Of a stretch of DNA of 64,000 nucleotides, positions 12,112 through 44,159 are shown piece by piece. The translations under genes and the position numbers were made by a program. Positions within the stretch are counted from its first letter, which is position 1; every line of letters begins with the position of its first letter. The stretch is from Candidatus Nomurabacteria bacterium. Lineage in GTDB: Bacteria > Patescibacteriota > Patescibacteriia > HK-STAS-PATE-3. The stretch covers positions 544,001-608,000 of the forward strand of contig CP060223.1 of the NCBI GenBank assembly GCA_023898465.1. Direction: 5' to 3'. Under the pieces are notes generated by a model. It was not told where the DNA came from and made no database searches. It worked only from the letters and a program-made list of their open reading frames with translations.

Positions 12112-12891
12112 TTATAACAATTTTTGTTGGCCGGGTTTGCGCTCTACCTCTCTGGCTGCTGCACGATACGCACAGTAGTCACAATCCTCGGCAGAGTCAG
12201 GTATATGTGAGCTGGATAAACAATCTTTTGCTTCTACCAGCACTTCGTCTACCCATCCATCATTTCCTTTGTATGGAATCACCTTCACATCAAACTCAAG
12301 CTTGGCATCAAAGGCCTTTGCATCAGTTTTACCATTGCAATAGACAAAGTAAGCGGTCGGAGAAACTTTAAAACCATTTTGACGCAGAAGCCATTGATAC
12401 ACTTCAACCTGCCGCTTATACCCAATCTGCCAATCAGCGTCTAATGAAACCTCGCCGTCTTTTGCCGTCGCCTTGTAATCAACCACGTGCAACTCATCTT
12501 TATCATTCACCCAGATGTCATCTACACCACCGGTTACCAGGAAACCACTTGGCACGTGATGAAAAGCAACTCCGCCTCGCAGCGCATCACGCCATTCATC
12601 CATTTTTGCATGGGCAAAAGGAATCGCTTTGATGCCATAGGCCGCTAACATGGGATGAGCAGTTTTTTTCACCCGATGCAGGTCAAATTCCTTTTTTAAT
12701 AATGCATCAACTGCGGAGTTGAGATTAAAGGGAAATCCTGGTGGCTGTGCTACGCCTAATCGCCGATCAAGATAAAAACATCTTTGACAATTGAGAAAAA
12801 GGTCAATCTTTGATCGACTAAGTCGGAAAGGACGAGTACTTTTTGGATCGTAGAGATTAGATTTCCGACGCGGATTATAGTATTGACTCAT
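12112..12891 (-). CDS. PD-(D/E)XK nuclease with Fe-S-type cysteines (Cas4/RecB-like domain).
   Basis: hhhD...VVDYKAT (D-x-D/E-Y-K) core. N-terminal CQRC and C-terminal C-x13-C-x2-C. No CRISPR context. Confidence 0.65.
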   Translation of the reverse strand: MSQYYNPRRKSNLYDPKSTRPFRLSRSKIDLFLNCQRCFYLDRRLGVAQPPGFPFNLNSAVDALLKKEFDLHRVKKTAHPMLAAYGIKAIPFAHAKMDEWRDALRGGVAFHHVPSGFLVTGGVDDIWVNDKDELHVVDYKATAKDGEVSLDADWQIGYKRQVEVYQWLLRQNGFKVSPTAYFVYCNGKTDAKAFDAKLEFDVKVIPYKGNDGWVDEVLVEAKDCLSSSHIPDSAEDCDYCAYRAAAREVERKPGQQKLL

Positions 12892-31373: not shown

Positions 31374-32357
31374 TTAGTCCCAATGAATATTGAGACTGGA
31401 AACGCCAAGGTCGAGAGTTAAGCTGAGATGTTTTTCTGCAGTGTCGTAATTGTCTGAGCGATAGGTTTTCTCACCTGTCTTACTGAAGCCATCCAGATTC
31501 TTCGAAGATAATCCAGCATCAACGTTTACATCTACTCCTAGGGTACTTGGCACGCTAATATCAACTGAGCTAGCTCCAGCATCAATAGCTACTTCACTCT
31601 CATCAAGTAAATCCCCTAGCGTGAGATTAAGACTTGAAGCTCCCGTAGCAATAGTCAACTTGCGCAGCATCACTTCAGTGAAATCTAAATCCATACTCAT
31701 GGCACCGCTCTTGATCAAAAGATCAATTGGCAACTCTCGCGTTAAGGAAAGATCAAGCTGATTAATGTGTGATCCAAGGCCGCTCCAATTTCCTTGAGTC
31801 TTCCATTCTACCGTCTGCACACTATCCGCATTCACATCGCTTACTTGTGACAGGCTCGTAAAGTCCGATTTAAAAGTTCCTTGGGCTAATTCAGCATCGC
31901 CAGCTTGCATATCTAATGAACCTGCTCCCATATCAATAGTCAGGTCTGCTGCAACCACGTCCGTTGCGCGCGCTAAGTCAATGTCTTTTAGTTCAACTTC
32001 TCGCTCATTAATCCAAAGCGAGGAAGTGCCGACTCCGGCTGCAACGAGAATTATCACAATCACCATAACCCAGGTCCCCCAGGATGACTTGGTGATGAGT
32101 GATATTCCTAAGAAGACGATAGCCAGAGGCCACAGCTCCCAGAGATTGAAATGCACATCAACCCAACCGGTCGTCTCTGCTAGATAGAGAAACCCAACAA
32201 TAACTAAGGTGATGCCAAAAAGTATGCGCCCAGGATTATGACGATGCAAACGCGACTCGCGCTGCTCCGGTTTTACCTCTGGCTTTGGCGGTGGAGGCGG
32301 TGGAGCCTCTTTTCCTAAGGTAGGTGTTTCGTGATTTTGAAGCGGTGTCTCTGTCAT
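31374..32357 (-). CDS. LiaF-like / DUF4097 (toastrack) membrane protein with a Pro-rich N-terminus.
   Basis: N-terminal double-TM domain (ILFGITLVIVGFLYL...) and a C-terminal repetitive beta-rich domain. Adjacent to pspC. Confidence 0.55.
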   Translation of the reverse strand: MTETPLQNHETPTLGKEAPPPPPPKPEVKPEQRESRLHRHNPGRILFGITLVIVGFLYLAETTGWVDVHFNLWELWPLAIVFLGISLITKSSWGTWVMVIVIILVAAGVGTSSLWINEREVELKDIDLARATDVVAADLTIDMGAGSLDMQAGDAELAQGTFKSDFTSLSQVSDVNADSVQTVEWKTQGNWSGLGSHINQLDLSLTRELPIDLLIKSGAMSMDLDFTEVMLRKLTIATGASSLNLTLGDLLDESEVAIDAGASSVDISVPSTLGVDVNVDAGLSSKNLDGFSKTGEKTYRSDNYDTAEKHLSLTLDLGVSSLNIHWD

Positions 32358-32360
32358 AGC

Positions 32361-32804
32361 TTAGCTCCGTTTCATAAGAATAAAAATGCCGAGAAAAATA
32401 AACGTCAAAGGCCAAATACTATGCCACTGCAACCAGGTAAAGGAAAAGAGTTGCCGACTCAACAATACTACACCAAACACCACTACAATGACCCCGAGAA
32501 AATTTTGCAACTGATTTGCCTGTCCAGCGTTTTGTACCGCATCAACCTTTTCTTGAATTTCGTTTCCCACCTGTTGCGCGCGCTCACTTAGTGTTGTAGC
32601 AGCGTGCGTTGCGCCTTCTAGTGGTATAAGCAGCCAAAGCACAACATAAATAAGCACGCCCGCCCCATCAAAGATGGTAAGCAAGAGAAAGACGATACGA
32701 AAAATAACTGGGTCAATGCCAAAGTAGTGTCCTAATCCACCGCAGACGCCTGCCAGCATCCGATGAGTCCGTGATCGTACTAATAGTCGCGTTGAATTAG
32801 ACAT
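32361..32804 (-). CDS. PspC-domain protein (phage-shock protein C family).
   Basis: LVRSRTHRMLAGVCGGLGHYFGIDPVIFRIVFLLLTIFDGAGVLIYVVLWLLIP is a canonical PspC domain. Confidence 0.75.
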   Translation of the reverse strand: MSNSTRLLVRSRTHRMLAGVCGGLGHYFGIDPVIFRIVFLLLTIFDGAGVLIYVVLWLLIPLEGATHAATTLSERAQQVGNEIQEKVDAVQNAGQANQLQNFLGVIVVVFGVVLLSRQLFSFTWLQWHSIWPLTFIFLGIFILMKRS

Positions 32805-32877
32805 GAATTTCCTTTGTCTTTATCCTAGCACAGCTCTATGGACTGGCAATAGGGCTAAAATTGGCGCAAAAAATGAC

Positions 32878-33071
32878 TTGACAAAGATTTTAGCAAGTCT
32901 TAATGTCTCTATGTTGTCACAAGTACAACAGGCTCCCTGCGGTGCTCCGCGGGTACAATACACAAGAGATCAATCAGATTTGCGAAGTCGCCCTGCGGGG
33001 TGAATTCACCTGCAAAAGCAGGCTCTCTCGTGTGTTGGCCCAACGTGTATTGCGTGGGGGCCTTTTTCTTT
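32878..33071 (+). ncRNA. Candidate small RNA: TTGACA-N17-TAATGT promoter, about 150-nt GC-rich body, intrinsic terminator GGCCCAACG...CGTGGGGGCC plus TTTTTCTTT.
   Basis: Promoter at 32878-32906 and terminator at 33037-33071, read directly. The only ORF here (32903..33247) is implausible. It lies between the pspC and mscL genes on the opposite strand. Confidence 0.3.
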
Positions 33072-33471
33072 ACTCAAGTTGTGAAGTACAACTTGGACAA
33101 CGAGTTGCCTGTAGAGGAATTTCTGAAATGCAAAAGCGGCAAGACTTCGTGCTTACTTCTACTTCTTTTGGCTTTTGTAATTTGCTTAACAAGCGAATCA
33201 TAAAGAAAATGACTGCCGCAATAATCAAGAAGTCAATAGCCGCTTGAATAAACATCCCGTAAGTCAAATATACTGGCTCAGCTTCTGTACCGCCAATTTT
33301 TACTTGTAGACCAGAAAAATCTATCCCTCCGCTAATCAAACCAATCACCGGCATAATAATATCAGCGACTAAAGAGCTGACAATCTTACCAAAAGCAGCA
33401 CCAATGATGACCGCAACTGCCAGGTCCATCACGTTGCCGCGCATAATGAAGGCCTTAAAATCCTTTAACAT
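33070..33471 (-). CDS. mscL: Large-conductance mechanosensitive channel MscL with a C-terminal CxxC...CxxC zinc-ribbon-like extension.
   Basis: MLKDFKAFIMRGNVMDLAVAVIIGAAFGKIVSSLVADIIMPVIG is canonical MscL. C-terminal CRFCISEIPLQATRCPSC. Confidence 0.85.
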   Translation of the reverse strand: MLKDFKAFIMRGNVMDLAVAVIIGAAFGKIVSSLVADIIMPVIGLISGGIDFSGLQVKIGGTEAEPVYLTYGMFIQAAIDFLIIAAVIFFMIRLLSKLQKPKEVEVSTKSCRFCISEIPLQATRCPSCTSQLE

Positions 33472-33492: not shown

Positions 33493-35181
33493 CTAACCGG
33501 CACTCGACCCGCCACCGCCGCCTCCGCCACCTGCAAATCCCCCGCCGCCAAATCCTGAGCTCGAAGATGGCGAACTGGCAAGGCTAGTTGCGACGCTGCT
33601 GTTCATAACTGAGACAAGGTGGTCAGTAAAACTCACTGCATTAAATGCTGCGAGTGGGTGTGTTGAATGAAACCACTTCGGCGGCTCAGTATAAATATCA
33701 CGGAAGCGATTCGCCCATTGCTTCTCCACATTAAATACCATGGCATAGGGTAAGAAACGCTCAAAGGTTTGCGGAGTCATGGCAGCAACTCTGAATCGCT
33801 CAGCAGTATGTAAGTAAAGCTTAAATCCTTCAGACCATTCCAACGCATGAATACCCTTCTTGGTTTTTTTAGGCATGACTCGACCAAAAATTACCAGCAG
33901 CAGCGCATACACCCAAGGTACGAAAAGGGTGAAAAAACCGATAGGAATCAAGGCTATAGCTACATAATAATATCGACGACGTATACTGTCTGGACGCACC
34001 GGGAAATAACCATACTCATCTGTGGTAACGCTATAAATACTGCTGGTGATTTCCTTCATATCCTTATAAAAGGAATTCTTCAAATCAGAAAGTGCAACTC
34101 GCTCTCCTGTGCTAAAGAGCTTCTCCATTAATAAAAGCTCATAGGGTTTCAAACTCGTATCATGCGCTACACTCTTGAGGCGAACAAAAGTATACTCCTT
34201 TTTCTTAAACAGTCCCCCTTCTTCATCCTCTTCAATGCGTAAATAACCCCGCACTGCTAAATCAATAATTGTGGCAATAAAATCACGTCGATCCGCCTGC
34301 TCATCGATTAAAGTACCGACGACTGCCGGCGGCGCACCATCGGGTGCTTCATATTGCGGGATAATTGTTACCCTACCCTCGGGGTCACGTCCATGCGCTC
34401 GCCAGCGTGAAATAAGCCAAAGAAGTAATACAAGTGGTGAGGCAATATATATCCAACGGAACCAGTCCCAAAAACTTGACCAAAGGCTGGTTTCCTCCTT
34501 GATAGTTTCAAAAGTTACTTCTCCTTTTGGCCAGCCTGCTACAATCGTCATTTCATCTGATGGTCCAACATCAGAGGTAGTAAAGGTTAACGTATCGCCT
34601 TCTTGCGTATAGGTTGTCCGATCTGCCGTACTGCCTCTGGGTCCGACTAATAATCGCTGCTGCGTATCTTCACTGCCATAGGATTTCGGTAGCACGACTT
34701 TAGCGCTGGCATAATGAATGGGTACTCCACGTTGTGCAGAAACTACATTCCAGTAGAGCTCGTCATGGTCAGCAAAATCACCGATTGCATTATGGGCTCG
34801 GTAATGAAAAGTAATGGATTTTTGTGTAATACCGGCATCTGGTGTTTTAGAGAAATACGCTCGAATGCGTACTTCCTTCGAAGTATTTTGTATATCAACA
34901 TCTGAGGAGGCAAATGCTTTACCGTCCTGGTCGTAAACCTCAATCTCGTCATACCAAATGCCTTTTGTTTTTGGTAGCGTCCTGCCTACCCACGTAAAAG
35001 CACCATGAAAATCAATATCCTGCTGCTCATCTACAATAATACTGGAATCCGTTTCAATAGTAATAGTCGAATCCCATGAACGGAACTCCCAAGTCTTGAT
35101 TTGCGCCTGAACCTGTGAGGTCCATAATAGTCCAATAAGGAGAATAGGAATGAAGCGAAATCGATGGAAAATATTTTGCAT
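33493..35181 (-). CDS. DUF2207-family membrane protein with a Gly-rich C-terminus.
   Basis: Signal peptide, large N-terminal beta domain, TM helices, C-terminal SSGFGGGGFAGGGGGGGGSSAG typical of DUF2207. Confidence 0.65.
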   Translation of the reverse strand: MQNIFHRFRFIPILLIGLLWTSQVQAQIKTWEFRSWDSTITIETDSSIIVDEQQDIDFHGAFTWVGRTLPKTKGIWYDEIEVYDQDGKAFASSDVDIQNTSKEVRIRAYFSKTPDAGITQKSITFHYRAHNAIGDFADHDELYWNVVSAQRGVPIHYASAKVVLPKSYGSEDTQQRLLVGPRGSTADRTTYTQEGDTLTFTTSDVGPSDEMTIVAGWPKGEVTFETIKEETSLWSSFWDWFRWIYIASPLVLLLWLISRWRAHGRDPEGRVTIIPQYEAPDGAPPAVVGTLIDEQADRRDFIATIIDLAVRGYLRIEEDEEGGLFKKKEYTFVRLKSVAHDTSLKPYELLLMEKLFSTGERVALSDLKNSFYKDMKEITSSIYSVTTDEYGYFPVRPDSIRRRYYYVAIALIPIGFFTLFVPWVYALLLVIFGRVMPKKTKKGIHALEWSEGFKLYLHTAERFRVAAMTPQTFERFLPYAMVFNVEKQWANRFRDIYTEPPKWFHSTHPLAAFNAVSFTDHLVSVMNSSVATSLASSPSSSSGFGGGGFAGGGGGGGGSSAG

Positions 35182-35190
35182 GGATGGTCT

Positions 35191-35805
35191 TTATATTTCT
35201 TGTCTACGCTTGCGCTGGAGCCAGGATTGAAACTCTTTATCCTGTTTCATTATCTCTTCAATCTCTCCGCGTAAGTAGTCAGCTTTTTTAAGTTTCGTAT
35301 TTTGAGTTTTCCAATCAAGATAGTGATCAATGGTCGGAGTAATGCGCAAAGTAAATTTAATGCGCGGAATCTCTTTCACTTCCCGCTTCCCAACTGTTTT
35401 GAGGAAGTCACCCAATAACCATTGTAATGAGTCATCCGTATAATAACGTATCTGACAAGTTTTTGGAACCTGCTTTTGATTGAGATATTTCAAGATTTGC
35501 CGGCCAGGACTACCGCGCTCTGATAAAAAGATGGTTGGCTTCTTCTGGGCGACTGCATAGGCAAGTAAATATCCAACTTCCGAGTCAGGAGTTGAGCCCT
35601 CAATCACAATTGCATCCATTGCATCAAGCAAGGTGCCACCTTTTGCTTCTATTTCTTGGGCTGAGGCTGGATCTAGGCTTGTTTCTGGGTGAATAGTGTT
35701 TGAGGAAAGTGCAATATCTGCCTCACGCAAAATGCGTCGTATCATGGCGTAGGCCTGTCGCAATCGTTGAGTGGTCGTATCTGGTCCGTAAAAATACACG
35801 TGCAT
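35191..35805 (-). CDS. Nucleoside 2-deoxyribosyltransferase-like (NDT/Rossmann-like) protein.
   Basis: VYFYGP...LDAMDAIVIEGSTPDSEVGYLLAYAVAQKKPTIFL resembles the NDT family core (G/Y-rich loop, D..E, KP). Confidence 0.45.
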   Translation of the reverse strand: MHVYFYGPDTTTQRLRQAYAMIRRILREADIALSSNTIHPETSLDPASAQEIEAKGGTLLDAMDAIVIEGSTPDSEVGYLLAYAVAQKKPTIFLSERGSPGRQILKYLNQKQVPKTCQIRYYTDDSLQWLLGDFLKTVGKREVKEIPRIKFTLRITPTIDHYLDWKTQNTKLKKADYLRGEIEEIMKQDKEFQSWLQRKRRQEI

Positions 35806-35806
35806 A

Positions 35807-36805
35807 CTAGTGGTGCAGAATTTCCTTTATCTTTTCTTTAAGTAAGCGCTGCACTTGAGTGGTATTTTTTGCTTGAGCAAAAATCCATGAGCTCAACACA
35901 AAAGCACTGTGATATGGCAGGGTGTGGAGAAGTGGTAAAGAGCTCAATCGATCTTGTTGAGCTTCTTGCTGATAAACTATCACAGGAACTTTACTTTTTT
36001 GCAGTTTTTCTAACGCCGAAACATGAGCTGAACTAAGCTGACTAGCTGGATCAAGCTTCACGAGAACTCCCGGTGCTTTCATTACCTCGCCGCTCAATCG
36101 ATCGGTGATTTGCATACCTGGATGCACATCAATCACCACCATGTCTGAGGCAAAGTCAGTGGCAAATTTCACTGCCCGATTACTCTGTTTCCTGATCGGT
36201 GGGAATAGTTTCAAGCCGAAATCAACTTTACCGAGCAAAATTCCGGACAAGGAACGGAAATACTGTGCATCGGGCGGTGCCACTGTAGTCAATTCAATCG
36301 CGCGATGAATTTGATTACCAAAGACCGCACACACATCACCGAAGGAGTATTCAGCTACATGCAGGGCATTCAAGAGATTATCCTTTTGTCCTAAGCCTCG
36401 TGCATGGGCGAACAGCGCCCGTATGTTTGCCGGCACTTTTGGACGCAGCAAATCATGCGGTGAGGCAGTTAATACGACTGGCTTACCTGTGTTTCCCAGT
36501 GCTGCGCCCAGGGCGGGTGCGGTATAGTGCAGCGTTTCTACTTCATGGCTAATCACAAAGCCGTCGAACTTGGTATAGTTGTCGCTAATCACCCGACCGA
36601 TTGACTGCCACAAGGCTGGCGAAACCCCGGACCCTTCGGCGTTTGCCACGTAGGTTGCATCGATTTCTGCCATGATGCTCAACTCTTGCATTTCTCGCAT
36701 CCAAGCAGCCACCTCGCGCTCACTCTGCACCAGGCGCTTTTTGCCTGGACCATACGACAGCGCTGATCCGCTGACGAGAAGTATAAGAATGCGTGCACGT
36801 TGCAT
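35807..36805 (-). CDS. L-asparaginase-fold homolog with degenerate catalytic motifs (pseudo-asparaginase).
   Basis: Aligns to type I asparaginase (YTKFDGFVISHEVETLHYTAPALGAALGNTGKPVVLTASPHDLL...NLLNALHVAEY), but TGGTIAG is VSGSALS and HGTDTM is SHEVETL. Confidence 0.5.
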   Translation of the reverse strand: MQRARILILLVSGSALSYGPGKKRLVQSEREVAAWMREMQELSIMAEIDATYVANAEGSGVSPALWQSIGRVISDNYTKFDGFVISHEVETLHYTAPALGAALGNTGKPVVLTASPHDLLRPKVPANIRALFAHARGLGQKDNLLNALHVAEYSFGDVCAVFGNQIHRAIELTTVAPPDAQYFRSLSGILLGKVDFGLKLFPPIRKQSNRAVKFATDFASDMVVIDVHPGMQITDRLSGEVMKAPGVLVKLDPASQLSSAHVSALEKLQKSKVPVIVYQQEAQQDRLSSLPLLHTLPYHSAFVLSSWIFAQAKNTTQVQRLLKEKIKEILHH

Positions 36806-36897
36806 GAGGTGTGTATTTACGCCGTCGTAACTATTTTAGAGACGGCGCTTTATTATACCCAAAAACTCCCCCTTTGGTCAAAACACTATACTTTACG

Positions 36898-38268
36898 TTA
36901 TGACCTCAGCCACTCTCTCCCCTGTCGTACGAGCAGCTCTTCTGCTTCCTCGGGGTCCTGGAGAAGCTCACGTACCACGCGCTCAAGTCGCACTGATTGC
37001 GAACCCTTCACCAATACGATGTCATGCAGACCTACTACCGAGCGGAGAAAAACCACTGCAGCTTTTGCGTCGGGAAACTCGTGCACTTCCTCCTCAGGAA
37101 AACCTGCTTCACGTGCTGCAGCTGCGATCTTGGCACCCAGCTTGCCAACGGTCACGAGAATATCGGCATGTCCTTTTACCGTCTTTCCAATTTCAGCATG
37201 TGCGTCATCAGTGTATTCCCCCAGCTCAGCCATATCACCTAACACCACAATACGGCGGAAAAAAGTAGCGGATTCAATGGTCTCAGATTTTTTTAATGGT
37301 CCAGTTGTAAGGTGATGTCGCAAATCCTTGGACAAATCACTGATCAACTGAAGTGCCGCAGTCACTGCACGTGGCGAGGCATTATATGAATCATCAATCA
37401 GGAGAGAACGCTTCTGACCTTTGAGTAAACGAGTGCGGCCACGTGGCGGGACGAAATGACGAAAGGCCTCAGCGATGTCGCGCAGATCCATACCATAGGC
37501 AAGTGCCACGCATGTTGCAGCTAGGGCGCTGGAAATAATTGCCTGCCCTACACTTCCTCGCAGCTCCAATGTTGCACTCTTATCCTCAAAATGTACTACG
37601 CAGCGCATGCCCTCGATGCTGGGAAACGCTTCAAATGATTCCTGCTTCCCATACAAGAAACCTACCTCGGTTGCCTGAACGTCAGCTTCTGCGTGAATGC
37701 CATAGCTCAGCACCCGCGACTTGGTCAGTTTATGAAATTCTAAGACTCGCTCATCATCTGCATTGAGAATGGTGTAGCCATCATCTTCTGTGCTTTTTGC
37801 CAGGACCGACTTTTCCTCTGCTACCTTCTCAACTGATCCAAAAAATTCCGTGTGCACTGGAGCAACTGCGGTGACAACACTTACCCGTGGTCGCGCAATG
37901 CTACAGAGATAGCTAATATCGCCCGGATGATCAGCGCCCATTTCTAGTATCAAGACTTCAGGGAAAGGACGACGTTGCAAAAGTAGCTTTGTCGCTTTGA
38001 TAAAAATTCCTAGCCAGGCAAAAGGGTTCCGACCGCCGCTCTTCGCGTCAATAATCGCCAGAGGTAAGCCAAGCTCGTTATTCAAGTTACCCTGACTCCG
38101 TCGCACCGCAAAAGCCCCGCTCATGACAGTGAAAATTGCTTCTTTGGTACTGGTTTTTCCAACGCTGCCCGTAATCGCCACCACATCGGGTTGATACTTA
38201 GCTAGGATTTTCCGTGCATACCAGGCTAGGATGCGCTGCACATACTGCTGGAGCTTTGAGATAGACAT
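36898..38268 (-). CDS. murF: UDP-N-acetylmuramoyl-tripeptide--D-alanyl-D-alanine ligase MurF.
   Basis: Mur ligase P-loop ITGSVGKTSTKE, DDSYNASP motif, C-terminal domain. Confidence 0.85.
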   Translation of the reverse strand: MSISKLQQYVQRILAWYARKILAKYQPDVVAITGSVGKTSTKEAIFTVMSGAFAVRRSQGNLNNELGLPLAIIDAKSGGRNPFAWLGIFIKATKLLLQRRPFPEVLILEMGADHPGDISYLCSIARPRVSVVTAVAPVHTEFFGSVEKVAEEKSVLAKSTEDDGYTILNADDERVLEFHKLTKSRVLSYGIHAEADVQATEVGFLYGKQESFEAFPSIEGMRCVVHFEDKSATLELRGSVGQAIISSALAATCVALAYGMDLRDIAEAFRHFVPPRGRTRLLKGQKRSLLIDDSYNASPRAVTAALQLISDLSKDLRHHLTTGPLKKSETIESATFFRRIVVLGDMAELGEYTDDAHAEIGKTVKGHADILVTVGKLGAKIAAAAREAGFPEEEVHEFPDAKAAVVFLRSVVGLHDIVLVKGSQSVRLERVVRELLQDPEEAEELLVRQGREWLRS

Positions 38269-40578: not shown

Positions 40579-42336
40579 TTACTCCCCAACTACACTCGGC
40601 GGAACTTCGAAGTAATTCAAGAGGAACTTCGCAATATCGCCGAATAAAGGCGCAGCAGTGCTCTCGGCAAATTTCACGTCCTTAGGATCCACAATCTTGG
40701 TCACCATGACAAACTTCGGGTCCTCGACCGGACCGAAACCGGCGAAGGAGCCAATGGTGCGATTAGGATCATAGCCCGGACCGTCAGTGCGTGGAATCTG
40801 CGCCGTACCTGTTTTACCGGCAATGTAATATCCTGGCACAGCCGCTCTCGTACCGTGACCATTCTTCACTACATTTACGAGCATGGCTGATACTGTGGTT
40901 GAGGTTTTTGGATCCAACACTTGTCGTACAGCTGTGGGGTGAGTTTTCACATGGAAGTCATTTGGCTTCACAATTTCATCAACGATGTATGGTTTATACA
41001 AAGTTCCCCCATTTGCAATAGCTGCATAGGCCGCGGCCAGCTGCAAAGGCGTGGCGGTGATACCTTGACCAAAAGAAGCGGTGTCAACGTAAATGTCACG
41101 TCCGCTGGCCAGCTCTCCGAGATTACCAGCCGACTCATTACCAAGCTCAACACCAGTCTGCTCACCAAAACCAAAGCGCTTCACATAGTCATAAAAAACG
41201 TCGTTCCCGGCCTGTTGCGCAGCAAAAATTGCTCCGGTGTTTAGAGATTTTTCCAACACCTCGGTCATTGTTTGCGTACCGTATGTTTTATCGTCGGAAT
41301 TCCGAATCGTGAAGCCGCCAACCTCTACACTTCCTTCATCAACATAAGTGGTTTCCGGTGTAACCTTGCCAGTATCAACCGCGGTCGCCATGGTAATGGG
41401 CTTGAAAATCGATCCAGGCTCATAAGGACTAATGGCCGGATTAAGAAAAACATCCAAGTCAGTCACCTCGTTGTAATGATTCGGATCAAAGTCAGGATAA
41501 CCGCACATGGCCAATATGGCACCGCTATCTGGATCAAGTATAACCACCGCCCCACTCTCAGCCCCGTGCTTCAGTACGGCTTCTTGAAGCTTCGTGCACA
41601 CAGTGTATTCCAGGGTACGGTCAATGGTAAGGATGAGATCATCACCATCTTTAGCATCTTGGATAAATCGATCGCCGACGGTAATCCAACGACCGGCCGC
41701 GTCGCGCTCAGCTTGCAAATAACCCTGTTGACCAGCCAGCTCTTCATCAAAATAACCTTCCAGTCCATACTGTCCTTTTTTCACATCCTCTGACATGCCA
41801 AGGAAACCAAGGATTTGGCTGGCCAGACTTCCCTCTGGATAAAGGCGTCCCTTTTCACTAATGAAAGAGATGCCATCAATCTCTAATGCCTCAATTTTTT
41901 CTTTGGTAGCAACGCTTATATTATGCTCAATCGGTTCATAGACATCGTCGCTTTTTGATAATCGAGCAAGTAATGTTTCTTTATCAAGCGTGATGAAACT
42001 TTCAAGCTTTTCGGTCACATCCTCCGGATCTTCAATTCGCTTTGGCACAGCATATACTAGGAAGCGTTCCTCATTGGTAGCCAGTGGAAAAAGCTGCCCA
42101 TCTGAATAGCGATCGTGCGCGTAAATTTCTCCACGATCTGGTAAAAGCCGTTGCTCAATTTCGTGCTGACCAGAGGCCAGCGCTTCGTAGAACCCGTGCG
42201 CTAAAACCTGCAGCGTGAATAGACGAACTACTAAAATACTCGAAAAGCCAAATAACAAAATAAGCAGCACGGTGAGACGATCAAGTCGCCATCTTGGCTG
42301 CTGTTGTCGTGGTCGATTGCGTCCGTACCGCGTCAT
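40579..42336 (-). CDS. ftsI: Penicillin-binding protein 2/FtsI (class B PBP, septal transpeptidase).
   Basis: N-terminal TM, dimerisation domain, transpeptidase motifs SIFK (SxxK), SLN (SxN), KTGT (KTG). Confidence 0.85.
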   Translation of the reverse strand: MTRYGRNRPRQQQPRWRLDRLTVLLILLFGFSSILVVRLFTLQVLAHGFYEALASGQHEIEQRLLPDRGEIYAHDRYSDGQLFPLATNEERFLVYAVPKRIEDPEDVTEKLESFITLDKETLLARLSKSDDVYEPIEHNISVATKEKIEALEIDGISFISEKGRLYPEGSLASQILGFLGMSEDVKKGQYGLEGYFDEELAGQQGYLQAERDAAGRWITVGDRFIQDAKDGDDLILTIDRTLEYTVCTKLQEAVLKHGAESGAVVILDPDSGAILAMCGYPDFDPNHYNEVTDLDVFLNPAISPYEPGSIFKPITMATAVDTGKVTPETTYVDEGSVEVGGFTIRNSDDKTYGTQTMTEVLEKSLNTGAIFAAQQAGNDVFYDYVKRFGFGEQTGVELGNESAGNLGELASGRDIYVDTASFGQGITATPLQLAAAYAAIANGGTLYKPYIVDEIVKPNDFHVKTHPTAVRQVLDPKTSTTVSAMLVNVVKNGHGTRAAVPGYYIAGKTGTAQIPRTDGPGYDPNRTIGSFAGFGPVEDPKFVMVTKIVDPKDVKFAESTAAPLFGDIAKFLLNYFEVPPSVVGE

Positions 42337-42348
42337 AGCACCTAGGCT

Positions 42349-42708
42349 TTAACGACGGGCAAAGGCGGAATCGGTCGGACTAAGATATTCAATATGCGCC
42401 ACTTCGGTTAAGCCGAGCTGGCCACTTGCTTCCTGGACTGCACTCAGAGATTGCAGCTCAGTCGCCTCTACTTCCAGGCGACGATTTTCTTTACGCAACT
42501 CATCTACTCGATTTTCCAGCGTCTTGATTTCGAAACCAGTTGTCGCCACATTGTTAATCAACGCTAAATAGGCTCCCCCACCAATCACTGCGAGCGTCAC
42601 CGTTAACACGGTAATTGCAGTGAGGCGCAGCTTCAATGTACGAAGCAGCGTACCTGCTAAGCGTTGAGAAATGGTGCTTTGTTGAGTTGTGCGATCGTAA
42701 TAGGTCAT
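42349..42708 (-). CDS. ftsL: FtsL/DivIC-like cell-division protein (single TM plus coiled coil).
   Basis: TM helix LTAITVLTVTLAVIGGGAYLALI followed by a leucine-zipper-like ENRVDELRKENRRLEVEATELQ. Positioned between rsmH and ftsI. Confidence 0.6.
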   Translation of the reverse strand: MTYYDRTTQQSTISQRLAGTLLRTLKLRLTAITVLTVTLAVIGGGAYLALINNVATTGFEIKTLENRVDELRKENRRLEVEATELQSLSAVQEASGQLGLTEVAHIEYLSPTDSAFARR

Positions 42709-43658
42709 TGGATTTTTTCTGCTACTCGGAGTTTAGCGCTCCTGGAACGTGAATTGTGCGCAATCTCATCCTGACCCGGCACGACTGGTTTCTTGGTCAG
42801 CACCTGCAATGAAGCATGGTGATTGCACGTGCAGACCGGTTGTTGGGCAGGACAGATGCAGTCTGTTGATTCGCGCCGGAAGAAACGCTTCACGATCCTA
42901 TCCTCTAGCGAGTGATAACTGAGGACCGCGATGCGACCGCCGGGTTGAAGCAAGTGAACTACTTCTGGTAAAACGCGCGCGAGGACGTCGAGCTCGTCAT
43001 TGACTTTAATGCGAAGCGCTTGGAAGACTTGCGTCGCAGGGTGAATGCGCGATCGCCCTCGCTTGGGTTTTACCTTATCTATACAGGCGACAAGTTGTGG
43101 AATGTGCGTGAAGGGATTTTTTTGACGCTCGGTAACGATTGCTCGAGCAATGCGACCAGCTGCTGACTCTTCCCCGTACTCTTTGAATATTTTTTTTAGC
43201 TCTTGCTCAGATGCGGTATTGAGGATATCGGCAGCCGTTGCTTGTGCGCTGGTCGGATCAAAGCGGAAATCGAGAGGCGCGGAACTTAGAAAGGAAAATC
43301 TTGATGCGAGAGCTTCGATTGCCAGTGAAGAGAGACCAAGGTCCAATAGAACACCGCGTAGTTGAATATCTGGGAATTGTTCATGGATGCGCTGTGCTGC
43401 GTGAACAAAATTATCATGCAGGAGATGAGTGCGCTGGCTATACTTCTGTAAACGCGCCTTGGCTATATCCAGTGTGACTGGATCCGCCTCTACTCCAATG
43501 AGTATTCCCTTTGGAGCTGTGCGCTCAAGCATTGCTTCAGCGTGCCCTCCCCCACCTAGAGTCAGATCAAGCACCGTATCGCCTGAACCTAGGTTGAGGA
43601 GCGCTAATGTTTCGTTGAGAAGAACAGGAATGTGTCCGCGGCCGGATTGGGCAGGCAT
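42705..43658 (-). CDS. rsmH: 16S rRNA (cytosine1402-N4)-methyltransferase RsmH (MraW).
   Basis: HIPVLLNETLALL...DLTLGGGGHAEAM SAM-binding signature. Upstream ORF residues are an extension artefact. Confidence 0.85.
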   Translation of the reverse strand: MPAQSGRGHIPVLLNETLALLNLGSGDTVLDLTLGGGGHAEAMLERTAPKGILIGVEADPVTLDIAKARLQKYSQRTHLLHDNFVHAAQRIHEQFPDIQLRGVLLDLGLSSLAIEALASRFSFLSSAPLDFRFDPTSAQATAADILNTASEQELKKIFKEYGEESAAGRIARAIVTERQKNPFTHIPQLVACIDKVKPKRGRSRIHPATQVFQALRIKVNDELDVLARVLPEVVHLLQPGGRIAVLSYHSLEDRIVKRFFRRESTDCICPAQQPVCTCNHHASLQVLTKKPVVPGQDEIAHNSRSRSAKLRVAEKIQ

Positions 43659-43659
43659 C

Positions 43660-44103
43660 TTAGACACCGATTTCACCAAGCGCCTCGGCAATATCACCGC
43701 TGGACTTCTCGGTTTTGGTCTTATAAGCGGCCCAAGCAGTTTCATCCCAGAGTTCCAGGCGGTTGTACAAGCCAGCTACCACTACCTTCTTCTTCATAGT
43801 GGCGTACTTGCGCAAGTAATCAGGCAACATGATGCGCCCCTGCTTATCAATCTCCACATCCATGGCCCCAGCCAGCATTAAGCGTGAAAAAGCGCGGGTG
43901 TTTGCTTGAGCAATTGGCAAATTCGCTAACTTGTCAGCTAACTTCTCCCACTCTTGTTGTGGATACAAGAAAAGACAGTTGTCCAAGCCTCGGGTGACGA
44001 CTGCCCCTTTGCTGAGTGCTTCACGGAATTTTCGAGGTACTGCGAGGCGACCTTTTTCATCAATCGCGTGGTAGTACTCTCCGATAAACATGCTGGTGGT
44101 CAT
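43660..44103 (-). CDS. mraZ: Transcriptional regulator MraZ.
   Basis: MFIGEYYHAIDEKGRLAVPRKFRE... with duplicated SpoVT/AbrB-like halves. The start may be 44091. Confidence 0.85.
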   Translation of the reverse strand: MTTSMFIGEYYHAIDEKGRLAVPRKFREALSKGAVVTRGLDNCLFLYPQQEWEKLADKLANLPIAQANTRAFSRLMLAGAMDVEIDKQGRIMLPDYLRKYATMKKKVVVAGLYNRLELWDETAWAAYKTKTEKSSGDIAEALGEIGV

Positions 44104-44118: not shown

Positions 44119-44159
44119 TTATCCACATTAGGGAAGGGTTATCCCCACATTTATCCACT
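44119..44159. promoter_or_regulatory. Three direct repeats TTATCCACA / TTATCCCCA / TTATCCACT (DnaA-box consensus; GTGG[AG] on the mraZ strand) immediately upstream of mraZ. Candidate MraZ operator and/or DnaA sites.
   Basis: Boxes at 44119-44127, 44139-44147 and 44151-44159, read directly. Period 10-11 bp with one skipped unit. Confidence 0.5.

Follow-up and report, generated by a model that had tools for sequence, protein, structure and literature searches.

A conserved pair of a pseudo-asparaginase and a predicted ribbon-helix-helix protein as a candidate autoregulated module in Patescibacteria

What role is played by a gene for an asparaginase-fold protein with altered catalytic motifs, held in a tight operon with a second enzyme-like protein and a membrane protein? 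The question is raised by a locus within a stretch of 64,000 nt from a Candidatus Nomurabacteria bacterium (contig CP060223.1 of assembly GCA_023898465.1, positions 544,001 to 608,000; hereafter the window, whose own numbering is used throughout). The three genes of this locus encode an asparaginase-like protein (ASPL), a protein resembling nucleoside 2-deoxyribosyltransferases (NDT; the protein is here called NDTL), and a DUF2207 membrane protein. The original prediction, made from the window alone, hinted at nucleotide-signalling and defence-type systems. The computational analysis described here favors a different view, namely that ASPL and NDTL form a Patescibacteria-specific module in which NDTL is an autoregulated ribbon-helix-helix (RHH) transcription factor with an NDT-derived domain and ASPL is its pseudo-asparaginase partner; this reading is given a probability of roughly 55%. 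RHH autoregulators are known as a type, and this pair is undescribed in the literature that was searched, in which no description of either the ASPL–NDTL pair or the NDTL family was found.

Conservation of the ASPL–NDTL pair

Conservation of the locus was surveyed in one genome per species, giving 45 loci of which 43 contain a full-length NDTL gene. In all 43, NDTL is immediately preceded by ASPL on the same strand, and the junction between them is mostly a 4-nt overlap or a gap of 1–9 nt. In the window the open reading frames (ORFs) of the three minus-strand genes are real, with gaps of 1 nt between ASPL and NDTL and 9 nt between NDTL and the DUF2207 gene, and the tight operon first described there stands. 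Such spacing is by itself ordinary operon structure; it is the 43 of 43 pairing that exceeds chance. The trio did not hold up as a conserved block when its synteny was checked, since the DUF2207 gene adjoins the pair, directly 3′ of it, solely in the window and four related loci (L005, L006, L007, and L008), and is found within about 7 kb of the pair in approximately 12 of the 43 loci. The conserved unit is the ASPL–NDTL pair, not the trio. Its features in the window are as follows.

35807–36805, minus strand: ASPL (332 aa), ORF; type I asparaginase fold without catalytic residues (pseudo-asparaginase)
35191–35805, minus strand: NDTL (204 aa), ORF, the middle gene
35392–35805, minus strand: NDTL N-terminal domain, residues 1–138; NDT/Rcl-like fold of the flavodoxin type, lacking the catalytic Glu and Asp
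35236–35367, minus strand: predicted NDTL C-terminal RHH domain, residues 147–190, with an almost invariant strand IKFTLRIT

For a close species pair, the ratio of nonsynonymous to synonymous substitution rates (dN/dS) was 0.054 for ASPL and 0.038 for NDTL, compared with 0.089 for MurF; ASPL is under strong purifying selection and is not a decaying gene. Amino-acid divergence of both proteins follows that of MurF in all pairs compared, indicating vertical inheritance, and among the surveyed loci no mobile-element genes consistently flank the pair. The pair is preceded by murF in about 15 of 42 species loci and stands at the end of the division and cell wall (dcw) cluster in the window as well as in some 15 further species. 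A profile search with NDTL against 1.84 billion representatives (E ≤ 1e-3) delineated a family of 995 representatives at 50% identity. Among the 150 best relatives nearly all are about 170–220 aa in length, and the single homolog whose source name is informative is labelled “predicted DNA-binding protein.” A search for ASPL homologs at E ≤ 1e-10, a threshold too strict for a database of that size, gave six proteins.

In five or six loci, a small ORF encoding a four-helix bundle comes between the two genes, which are elsewhere tightly coupled. Such ORFs, members of the 23S_rRNA_IVP family (PF05635), occur between or beside ASPL and NDTL at L024:6522–6917 and L042:3648–4043, and in similar positions in L027, L029, and L036.

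Active-site residues and the ribbon-helix-helix domain

ASPL matches the Pfam model of the asparaginase N-terminal domain (PF00710) with 84.9 bits against a gathering score of 22.5 (E = 7e-24), and scores 76.2 bits against the type I asparaginase model TIGR00519, for which the curated cutoff of 260.5 is not reached. Its best sequence relatives are the type I enzymes, exemplified by E. coli asparaginase I (EcAI/AnsA), with which it shares the two-domain fold, the motifs DGFV.H, KP..TGS, and N..NA, and W68. The original description of an asparaginase fold with altered threonine motifs is correct on both counts, VSGSALS standing in place of TGGTIAG and SHEVETL in place of HGTDTM, and the triad lysine is gone as well: alignment with EcAI and with a second asparaginase-like protein of the window places Ser at T14, Val at T91, Glu at D92, and a residue other than Lys at K163. 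Across 45 ASPL members, the equivalent of EcAI T91 is never Thr, its position being occupied by Ile, Val, Phe, Pro, Leu, or Asp. The remaining catalytic positions are variable; the nucleophile (T14 in EcAI, T12 in E. coli asparaginase II, EcAII) is Ser in 16 members and Thr in 14, with Ala in 5 and a different residue or a deletion in the other 10, while Asp92 is kept in 30 of the 45 and position 163 is Lys or Arg in 25. ASPL proteins differ further from type I asparaginases in a family-specific insertion after TGSP and in being always paired with an RHH protein. Judged from these alignments, the family most likely consists of pseudo-asparaginases that retain the type I fold without its catalytic residues.

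The same residues bear on whether ASPL could still be an enzyme, with altered chemistry or another substrate, acting as a Ser/Thr-nucleophile amidohydrolase for which NDTL would be the dedicated RHH repressor, as in pairs of the catabolic type. This is unlikely, despite the 30 of 45 members with a Ser or Thr nucleophile, the frequent retention of Asp92 and of Lys or Arg at position 163, and the strong purifying selection on the gene. Decay of the family is also uneven, with one clade scoring 180–200 bits against the type I model, near the 225 bits of the second asparaginase-like protein, while the window ASPL reaches 76. The loss of the second threonine is nonetheless complete (45 of 45), one third of members have Ala, a different residue, or a deletion at the nucleophile position and are paired all the same, and the window protein has lost Thr14, Thr91, Asp92, and Lys163 together. 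The T89V mutant of EcAII is reportedly essentially inactive. Further evidence against retained catalysis is the covalent modification of this mutant at an active-site Thr, reported in work cited in PMC6667453, together with the presence in the same genome of a separate protein containing TGGTIAG. That protein (47956–49053, plus strand) was originally regarded as a bona fide asparaginase; its ORF and its TGGTIAG motif are indeed present, but its second motif reads HGTNTM, in which the triad Asp is replaced by Asn, and its 225 bits against TIGR00519 lie below the cutoff of 260.5. On its sequence, asparaginase activity is not to be presumed for it.

A precedent for an asparaginase-fold subunit within a two-gene heteromeric system is the archaeal GatD of the GatDE amidotransferase, and ASPL matches GatD models with E of about 1e-16. 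GatD retains its catalytic Thr residues and supplies ammonia to GatE, whereas ASPL has lost its catalytic residues and has no GatE-like partner beside it.

The proposed likeness of the middle protein to NDT is supported as a distant one. NDTL matches PF05014 with 20.9 bits (E = 4e-4), below the gathering score of 28.8, and Rcl is matched weakly by phmmer; its N-terminal 138 residues have the flavodoxin-like fold of the NDT type, and GYxLxxAxAxxKP is the motif in common. Unlike DNPH1/Rcl, MilB, and the nucleoside 2-deoxyribosyltransferases of PF05014, NDTL lacks the phosphate-binding GSIRGG loop. In the alignment, Leu80, which is invariant in 28 homologs, takes the place of the catalytic Glu (E93, the Rcl nucleophile), and Gly that of the catalytic Asp (D69). 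The N-terminal domain thus appears distantly NDT/Rcl-like with its catalytic residues missing.

A further difference from the NDT enzymes, overlooked by the original prediction, is a predicted RHH DNA-binding domain added at the C-terminus. Residues 147–190 are the most conserved part of NDTL, with an invariant KFTLRIT strand followed by K-A-D..R, and they have the strand–helix–helix fold of the RHH (MetJ/Arc/CopG) superfamily. Its Pfam matches, all below the curated thresholds, converge on the RHH clan, with HicB matched by 7 of 17 members, NikA-like by 6 of 17, and RHH_3 by 1. A profile search of the PDB with this module gave no RHH entry and just spurious matches to designed proteins, and a homolog search with it returned 11 short fragments and no new domain architectures. 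NDTL-type modules of the pattern P.IKFTLRI[ST]...KADFLR are also found in two patescibacterial proteins, fused to three GAF domains in one (L048:5225–7162, 645 aa) and to a single GAF domain in the other (L049:3204–3935, 243 aa), an arrangement that fits a DNA-binding output module behind sensor domains.

Folds of the NDT, TIR, and SLOG types, as well as RHH antitoxins, recur in conflict systems, and many antitoxins are among the closest structural relatives of the RHH model. The pair might accordingly be viewed as an anti-phage defence, toxin–antitoxin, or nucleotide-signalling module in which NDTL processes or senses nucleotides and its RHH domain is antitoxin-like; this is extremely improbable, and the defence and nucleotide-signalling framing of the original prediction is not borne out. 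PADLOC models are matched by none of ASPL, NDTL, and the DUF2207 protein, and the Glu and Asp that catalyze the NDT/Rcl reactions are missing. The pair occupies a fixed place after murF and the dcw genes, its divergence tracks MurF with dN/dS of about 0.05, and consistent mobile-element flanks are lacking. A 332-aa asparaginase fold corresponds to no known toxin type, and the pair does not have the composition of a type II toxin–antitoxin system (a small toxin of known fold with a short RHH antitoxin), its RHH domain instead ending a 204-aa two-domain protein.

Promoter, paired boxes, and autoregulation

Upstream of ASPL, whose ATG is at 36805, is a strong, conserved promoter followed by a pair of boxes, also overlooked in the original prediction.

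36876–36881, minus strand: −35 hexamer TTGACC, 16 nt 3′ of the murF stop codon
36852–36857, minus strand: −10 hexamer TATAAT, with an 18-nt spacer from the −35 hexamer
36841–36848, minus strand: box 1, GCGCCGTC, promoter-proximal and operator-like, beginning 3 nt after the −10 hexamer, with its GCCGTC core 5 nt after it
36820–36826, minus strand: box 2, GACGGCG, an inverted copy 14 nt from box 1, ending 14 nt before the ATG

The hexamers and their 18-nt spacer (11 of 12 matches) form the top promoter-like site between 33000 and 37100. The two boxes have 7-nt arms that are 100% complementary, and such an inverted pair occurs once in the 64-kb window against 0.03 expected by chance. In full, the box is a 10-mer near-palindrome, GCGCCGTCGC, with the core GCCGTC or its complement GACGGC. 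Of 42 species loci, 32 have a box pair upstream of ASPL, and in five more the pair is at the promoter of a gene for a membrane protein with HisKA_7TM and GAF domains (7TM-GAF) that heads a longer operon; overall, 37 of 40 evaluable loci have the pair at the operon promoter and two more have a single box. The two copies are inverted in 17 loci and direct in 17, and 24 of the 34 pairs have a spacing of 18 nt. The distance from the −10 hexamer to the start of the first core is 3–7 nt in 25 of 31 loci, which puts part of box 1 on or ahead of the expected start site. Among species whose proteins are about 35–45% identical, the boxes are invariant and the spacers vary freely.

This arrangement recalls that of known RHH regulators. 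The NDTL strand has alternating polar and basic residues, as in MetJ, NikR, PutA, and the omega repressor, including a K-x-T as in MetJ, where K23 and T25 make the base contacts. RHH regulators with a sensor or enzyme part likewise have a non-DNA-binding domain fused to the RHH domain, and omega accepts its heptads in direct or inverted orientation, comparable to the short boxes repeated in either orientation at the pair's own promoter. NDTL differs from these four proteins in that its RHH domain sits C-terminal to an NDT-like domain and matches no profile at its curated threshold, in that the boxes are 10-mers about 18 bp apart, and in that a pseudo-asparaginase is the obligatory second gene.

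The window and its clade have the two promoter boxes only. In many other lineages a second element is present directly 3′ of NDTL, with a nearly constant length of about 161–163 nt.

L018:7711–7971, L020:7697–7957, L021:7622–7882, L023:7593–7853, and about 30 further loci: second element, non-coding, conserved

A strong promoter and two GCCGTCGC boxes come first, and a stretch of about 45 nt separates them from two more boxes; TGTGGATAA or TGGGGATAA is next, and ssb or a gene for a GreA-C-terminal-like protein is last. The boxes are located about 16 nt past the −10 hexamer. In one clade the stretch of about 45 nt ends in a hairpin and a T-run, which suggests an attenuator or a short RNA of approximately 85 nt. 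When the window and ten related loci were scanned against Rfam, neither the boxes nor the second element matched a known RNA family, and RNAalifold applied to the second element recovered the invariant pairing between boxes alone, with no covariation, having missed the terminator hairpin because of a poor alignment.

The association of the boxes with NDTL was approached from the opposite direction by scanning metagenomes for the motif alone (GCCGTCGCA-N6-AGCGCCGTCGC). Of the 74 loci recovered, 21 are low-GC with the full promoter and box architecture; the high-GC loci are chance matches within coding regions. NDTL is directly upstream of the motif in 14 of the 16 low-GC loci with enough upstream DNA (the exceptions being L103 and L109), and ASPL is present too wherever the contig extends far enough. 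That the box occurs almost exclusively beside an NDTL gene is as expected for a regulator and its operator.

Two other box-like pairs were noted in the window. One, at 12453/12464, lies within a coding region and is probably due to chance. The other (GCGCCGTC...GCCGTCG, 52316–52346) is direct with a spacing of 23 nt and is located in an ORF-poor, locally GC-rich stretch (51293–52640), where searches for tRNA and tmRNA genes and for Rfam matches at E ≤ 0.1 found none.

The boxes could alternatively act in RNA, as a hairpin of the 5′ untranslated region or a site for an RNA-binding factor, or could be bound by an unlinked regulator, the RHH domain of NDTL then having some other target. The inverted boxes of the window and 17 loci could form a hairpin of 7–8 bp, direct copies can pair imperfectly too, and the boxes of the second element, at their distance from the −10 hexamer, would be transcribed. 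Set against this, there is not one compensatory change across species with 35–40% identical proteins, and the combination of invariant boxes with freely varying spacers indicates sequence-specific recognition. In nine loci, where the core begins just 3 nt after the −10 hexamer, the RNA would contain a truncated box 1, and in the second element an intrinsic terminator precedes boxes 3 and 4. With the motif confined almost entirely to the vicinity of NDTL, as for an autoregulator, action in RNA or through an unlinked protein is considered very unlikely.

The RHH protein and its repeated boxes might instead organize DNA, as would a centromere of the ParR/ParG/omega type or a replication element of the iteron type. 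ParR, ParG, and omega also belong to the RHH proteins and recognize iterated repeats at the operons that encode them, and both omega and ParG are among the structural matches of the RHH model. In many lineages the second element beside the pair has four direct boxes, an A/T-rich stretch, and TGTGGATAA within a constant length of about 161–163 nt, and the boxes flank the operon and adjoin a DnaA-box-like motif and ssb. Such a function seems very improbable indeed; the loci contain no ParA/ParM NTPase or Rep protein, the window and its clade make do with two promoter boxes, cumulative GC skew shows no turn in the window, and the boxes always come directly after a promoter, which is typical of an operator.

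In the autoregulatory reading favored here, NDTL would dimerize via its C-terminal RHH domain, and the dimer would bind the two GCGCCGTCGC boxes overlapping the start site of its own promoter and repress the operon, the bases being read by the alternating strand residues K150, T152, R154, and T156. ASPL is translationally coupled to NDTL, and the two dead enzyme folds would constitute the sensory or co-regulatory part, with the NDT-derived domain and ASPL providing oligomerization and signal input; binding of ASPL to NDTL and to a small ligand, for example an amino acid resembling Asn or Asp or one of its derivatives, would probably be what alters DNA binding. The regulated transcript of the window would extend to the DUF2207 gene and probably mscL, and in many other lineages the same boxes would also control the adjacent promoter before ssb or the GreA-C-terminal-like gene.

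Several observations weigh against this reading. Every RHH profile match of NDTL is below threshold, and strand and box are both invariant, which leaves no co-variation to link NDTL to the boxes. No GCCGTC box pairs are present near the GAF–RHH genes of L048 and L049, which leaves the module and the box without an independent connection. Contact between ASPL and NDTL is suggested by gene order alone, and no fusion of the two was found among the 150 best family representatives. Invariant polar residues are scarce in the N-terminal domain of NDTL, which degenerates further in one subfamily; this fits an oligomerization domain as well as a sensor. Residual or altered chemistry in ASPL is possible, because about two thirds of members keep a Ser/Thr nucleophile and many keep Asp and Lys, and the boxes may have some role at the RNA level, their near-palindromes being able to pair in either orientation.

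A more specific version, put forward by analogy and distinctly doubtful, is a metabolite-sensing switch of a new type, in which ASPL would detect asparagine or a similar amide by capturing it slowly or covalently and would signal to the RHH repressor through the dead NDT-fold adaptor. The idea stems from the many members that combine a kept nucleophile with Val or Ile at the second threonine, in which they resemble the EcAII T89V mutant. Were it true, the capture switch would tie envelope genes (DUF2207, mscL) and DNA-handling genes (ssb, GreA-like) to the nutrient status of these minimal, auxotrophic bacteria. Patescibacteria have very small genomes with few recognizable regulators, and to our knowledge no transcription factor–operator pair is known for them; the present candidate comprises a defined protein pair, a 10-bp box, a promoter, and a small putative regulon. 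If the autoregulatory reading is right, the asparaginase fold would join the enzyme scaffolds that have been reused as non-catalytic regulatory subunits, and ASPL would be the second asparaginase-like protein in a two-gene system, after the active enzyme GatD.

Genes neighbouring the pair

The immediate neighbours of the pair in the window are listed below.

33493–35181, minus strand: DUF2207 membrane protein (562 aa), PF09972 and PF20990
33070–33471, minus strand: mscL, 21 nt 3′ of the DUF2207 gene; context
36898–38268, minus strand: murF, upstream of ASPL, marking the end of the dcw cluster; context

The identification of the third protein as a DUF2207 membrane protein is upheld by matches above gathering scores to both PF09972 (69.5 bits, E = 5e-19) and PF20990 (133.9 bits, E = 1e-38), and its sequence has a signal-peptide-like N-terminus, hydrophobic segments, and the Gly-rich tail noted originally. 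Both Pfam domains, a predicted exposed N-terminal domain, transmembrane segments, and the Gly-rich tail are shared with other DUF2207 proteins, such as Streptococcus mutans SMU.243, the subject of a study on stress tolerance and biofilm formation (PMC10457818). What sets the present gene apart from DUF2207 genes elsewhere is its probable co-transcription with a regulator pair, restricted to the lineage of the window; it is a lineage-specific passenger outside the conserved core, probably co-transcribed with the pair across the 9-nt gap. Merely a weak terminator-like site separates it from mscL, which may be the last gene of the ASPL–NDTL–DUF2207 transcript. On the upstream side, the dcw genes run from mraZ to ftsI (40579–44103), with three inserted genes next and murF last. 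No tRNA or tmRNA genes and no Rfam families at gathering threshold were found in the window (1–64000).

Genes for PspC-domain and LiaF-like proteins are located a few kb from the pair in four separate lineages (window 31374–33471, L005:9658–11119, L012:2621–4050, and L041:1521–3375), accompanied by mscL in the window and L041, and form a second, loosely linked envelope-stress theme beside DUF2207. In the clade of L015, L024, L026, L029, L033, L036, L040, and L042, the pair is situated amid one to three HisKA_7TM and GAF membrane proteins without a kinase domain (for example L029:9447–10871 and L026:11736–12416), and four of these loci also hold a FeeM-like N-acyl amino acid synthase or autoinducer-synthase-like GNAT; these surroundings look like a signalling neighbourhood. 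As to the output of the module, the recurrent neighbours offer weak hints, those of the dcw cluster, DUF2207, MscL, and PspC/LiaF-like proteins pointing to the envelope, ssb and GreA-like genes to nucleic acids, and the 7TM-GAF and FeeM-like proteins of the one clade to signalling.

Upstream of mraZ (43660–44103, minus strand), the region 44119–44147 contains the DnaA-box-like sequences TTATCCACA and TTATCCCCA 20 nt apart. The same motif adjoins GCCGTC elements at other loci; in the 7TM-GAF clade it precedes the −35 hexamer, and in the second element it follows boxes 3 and 4.

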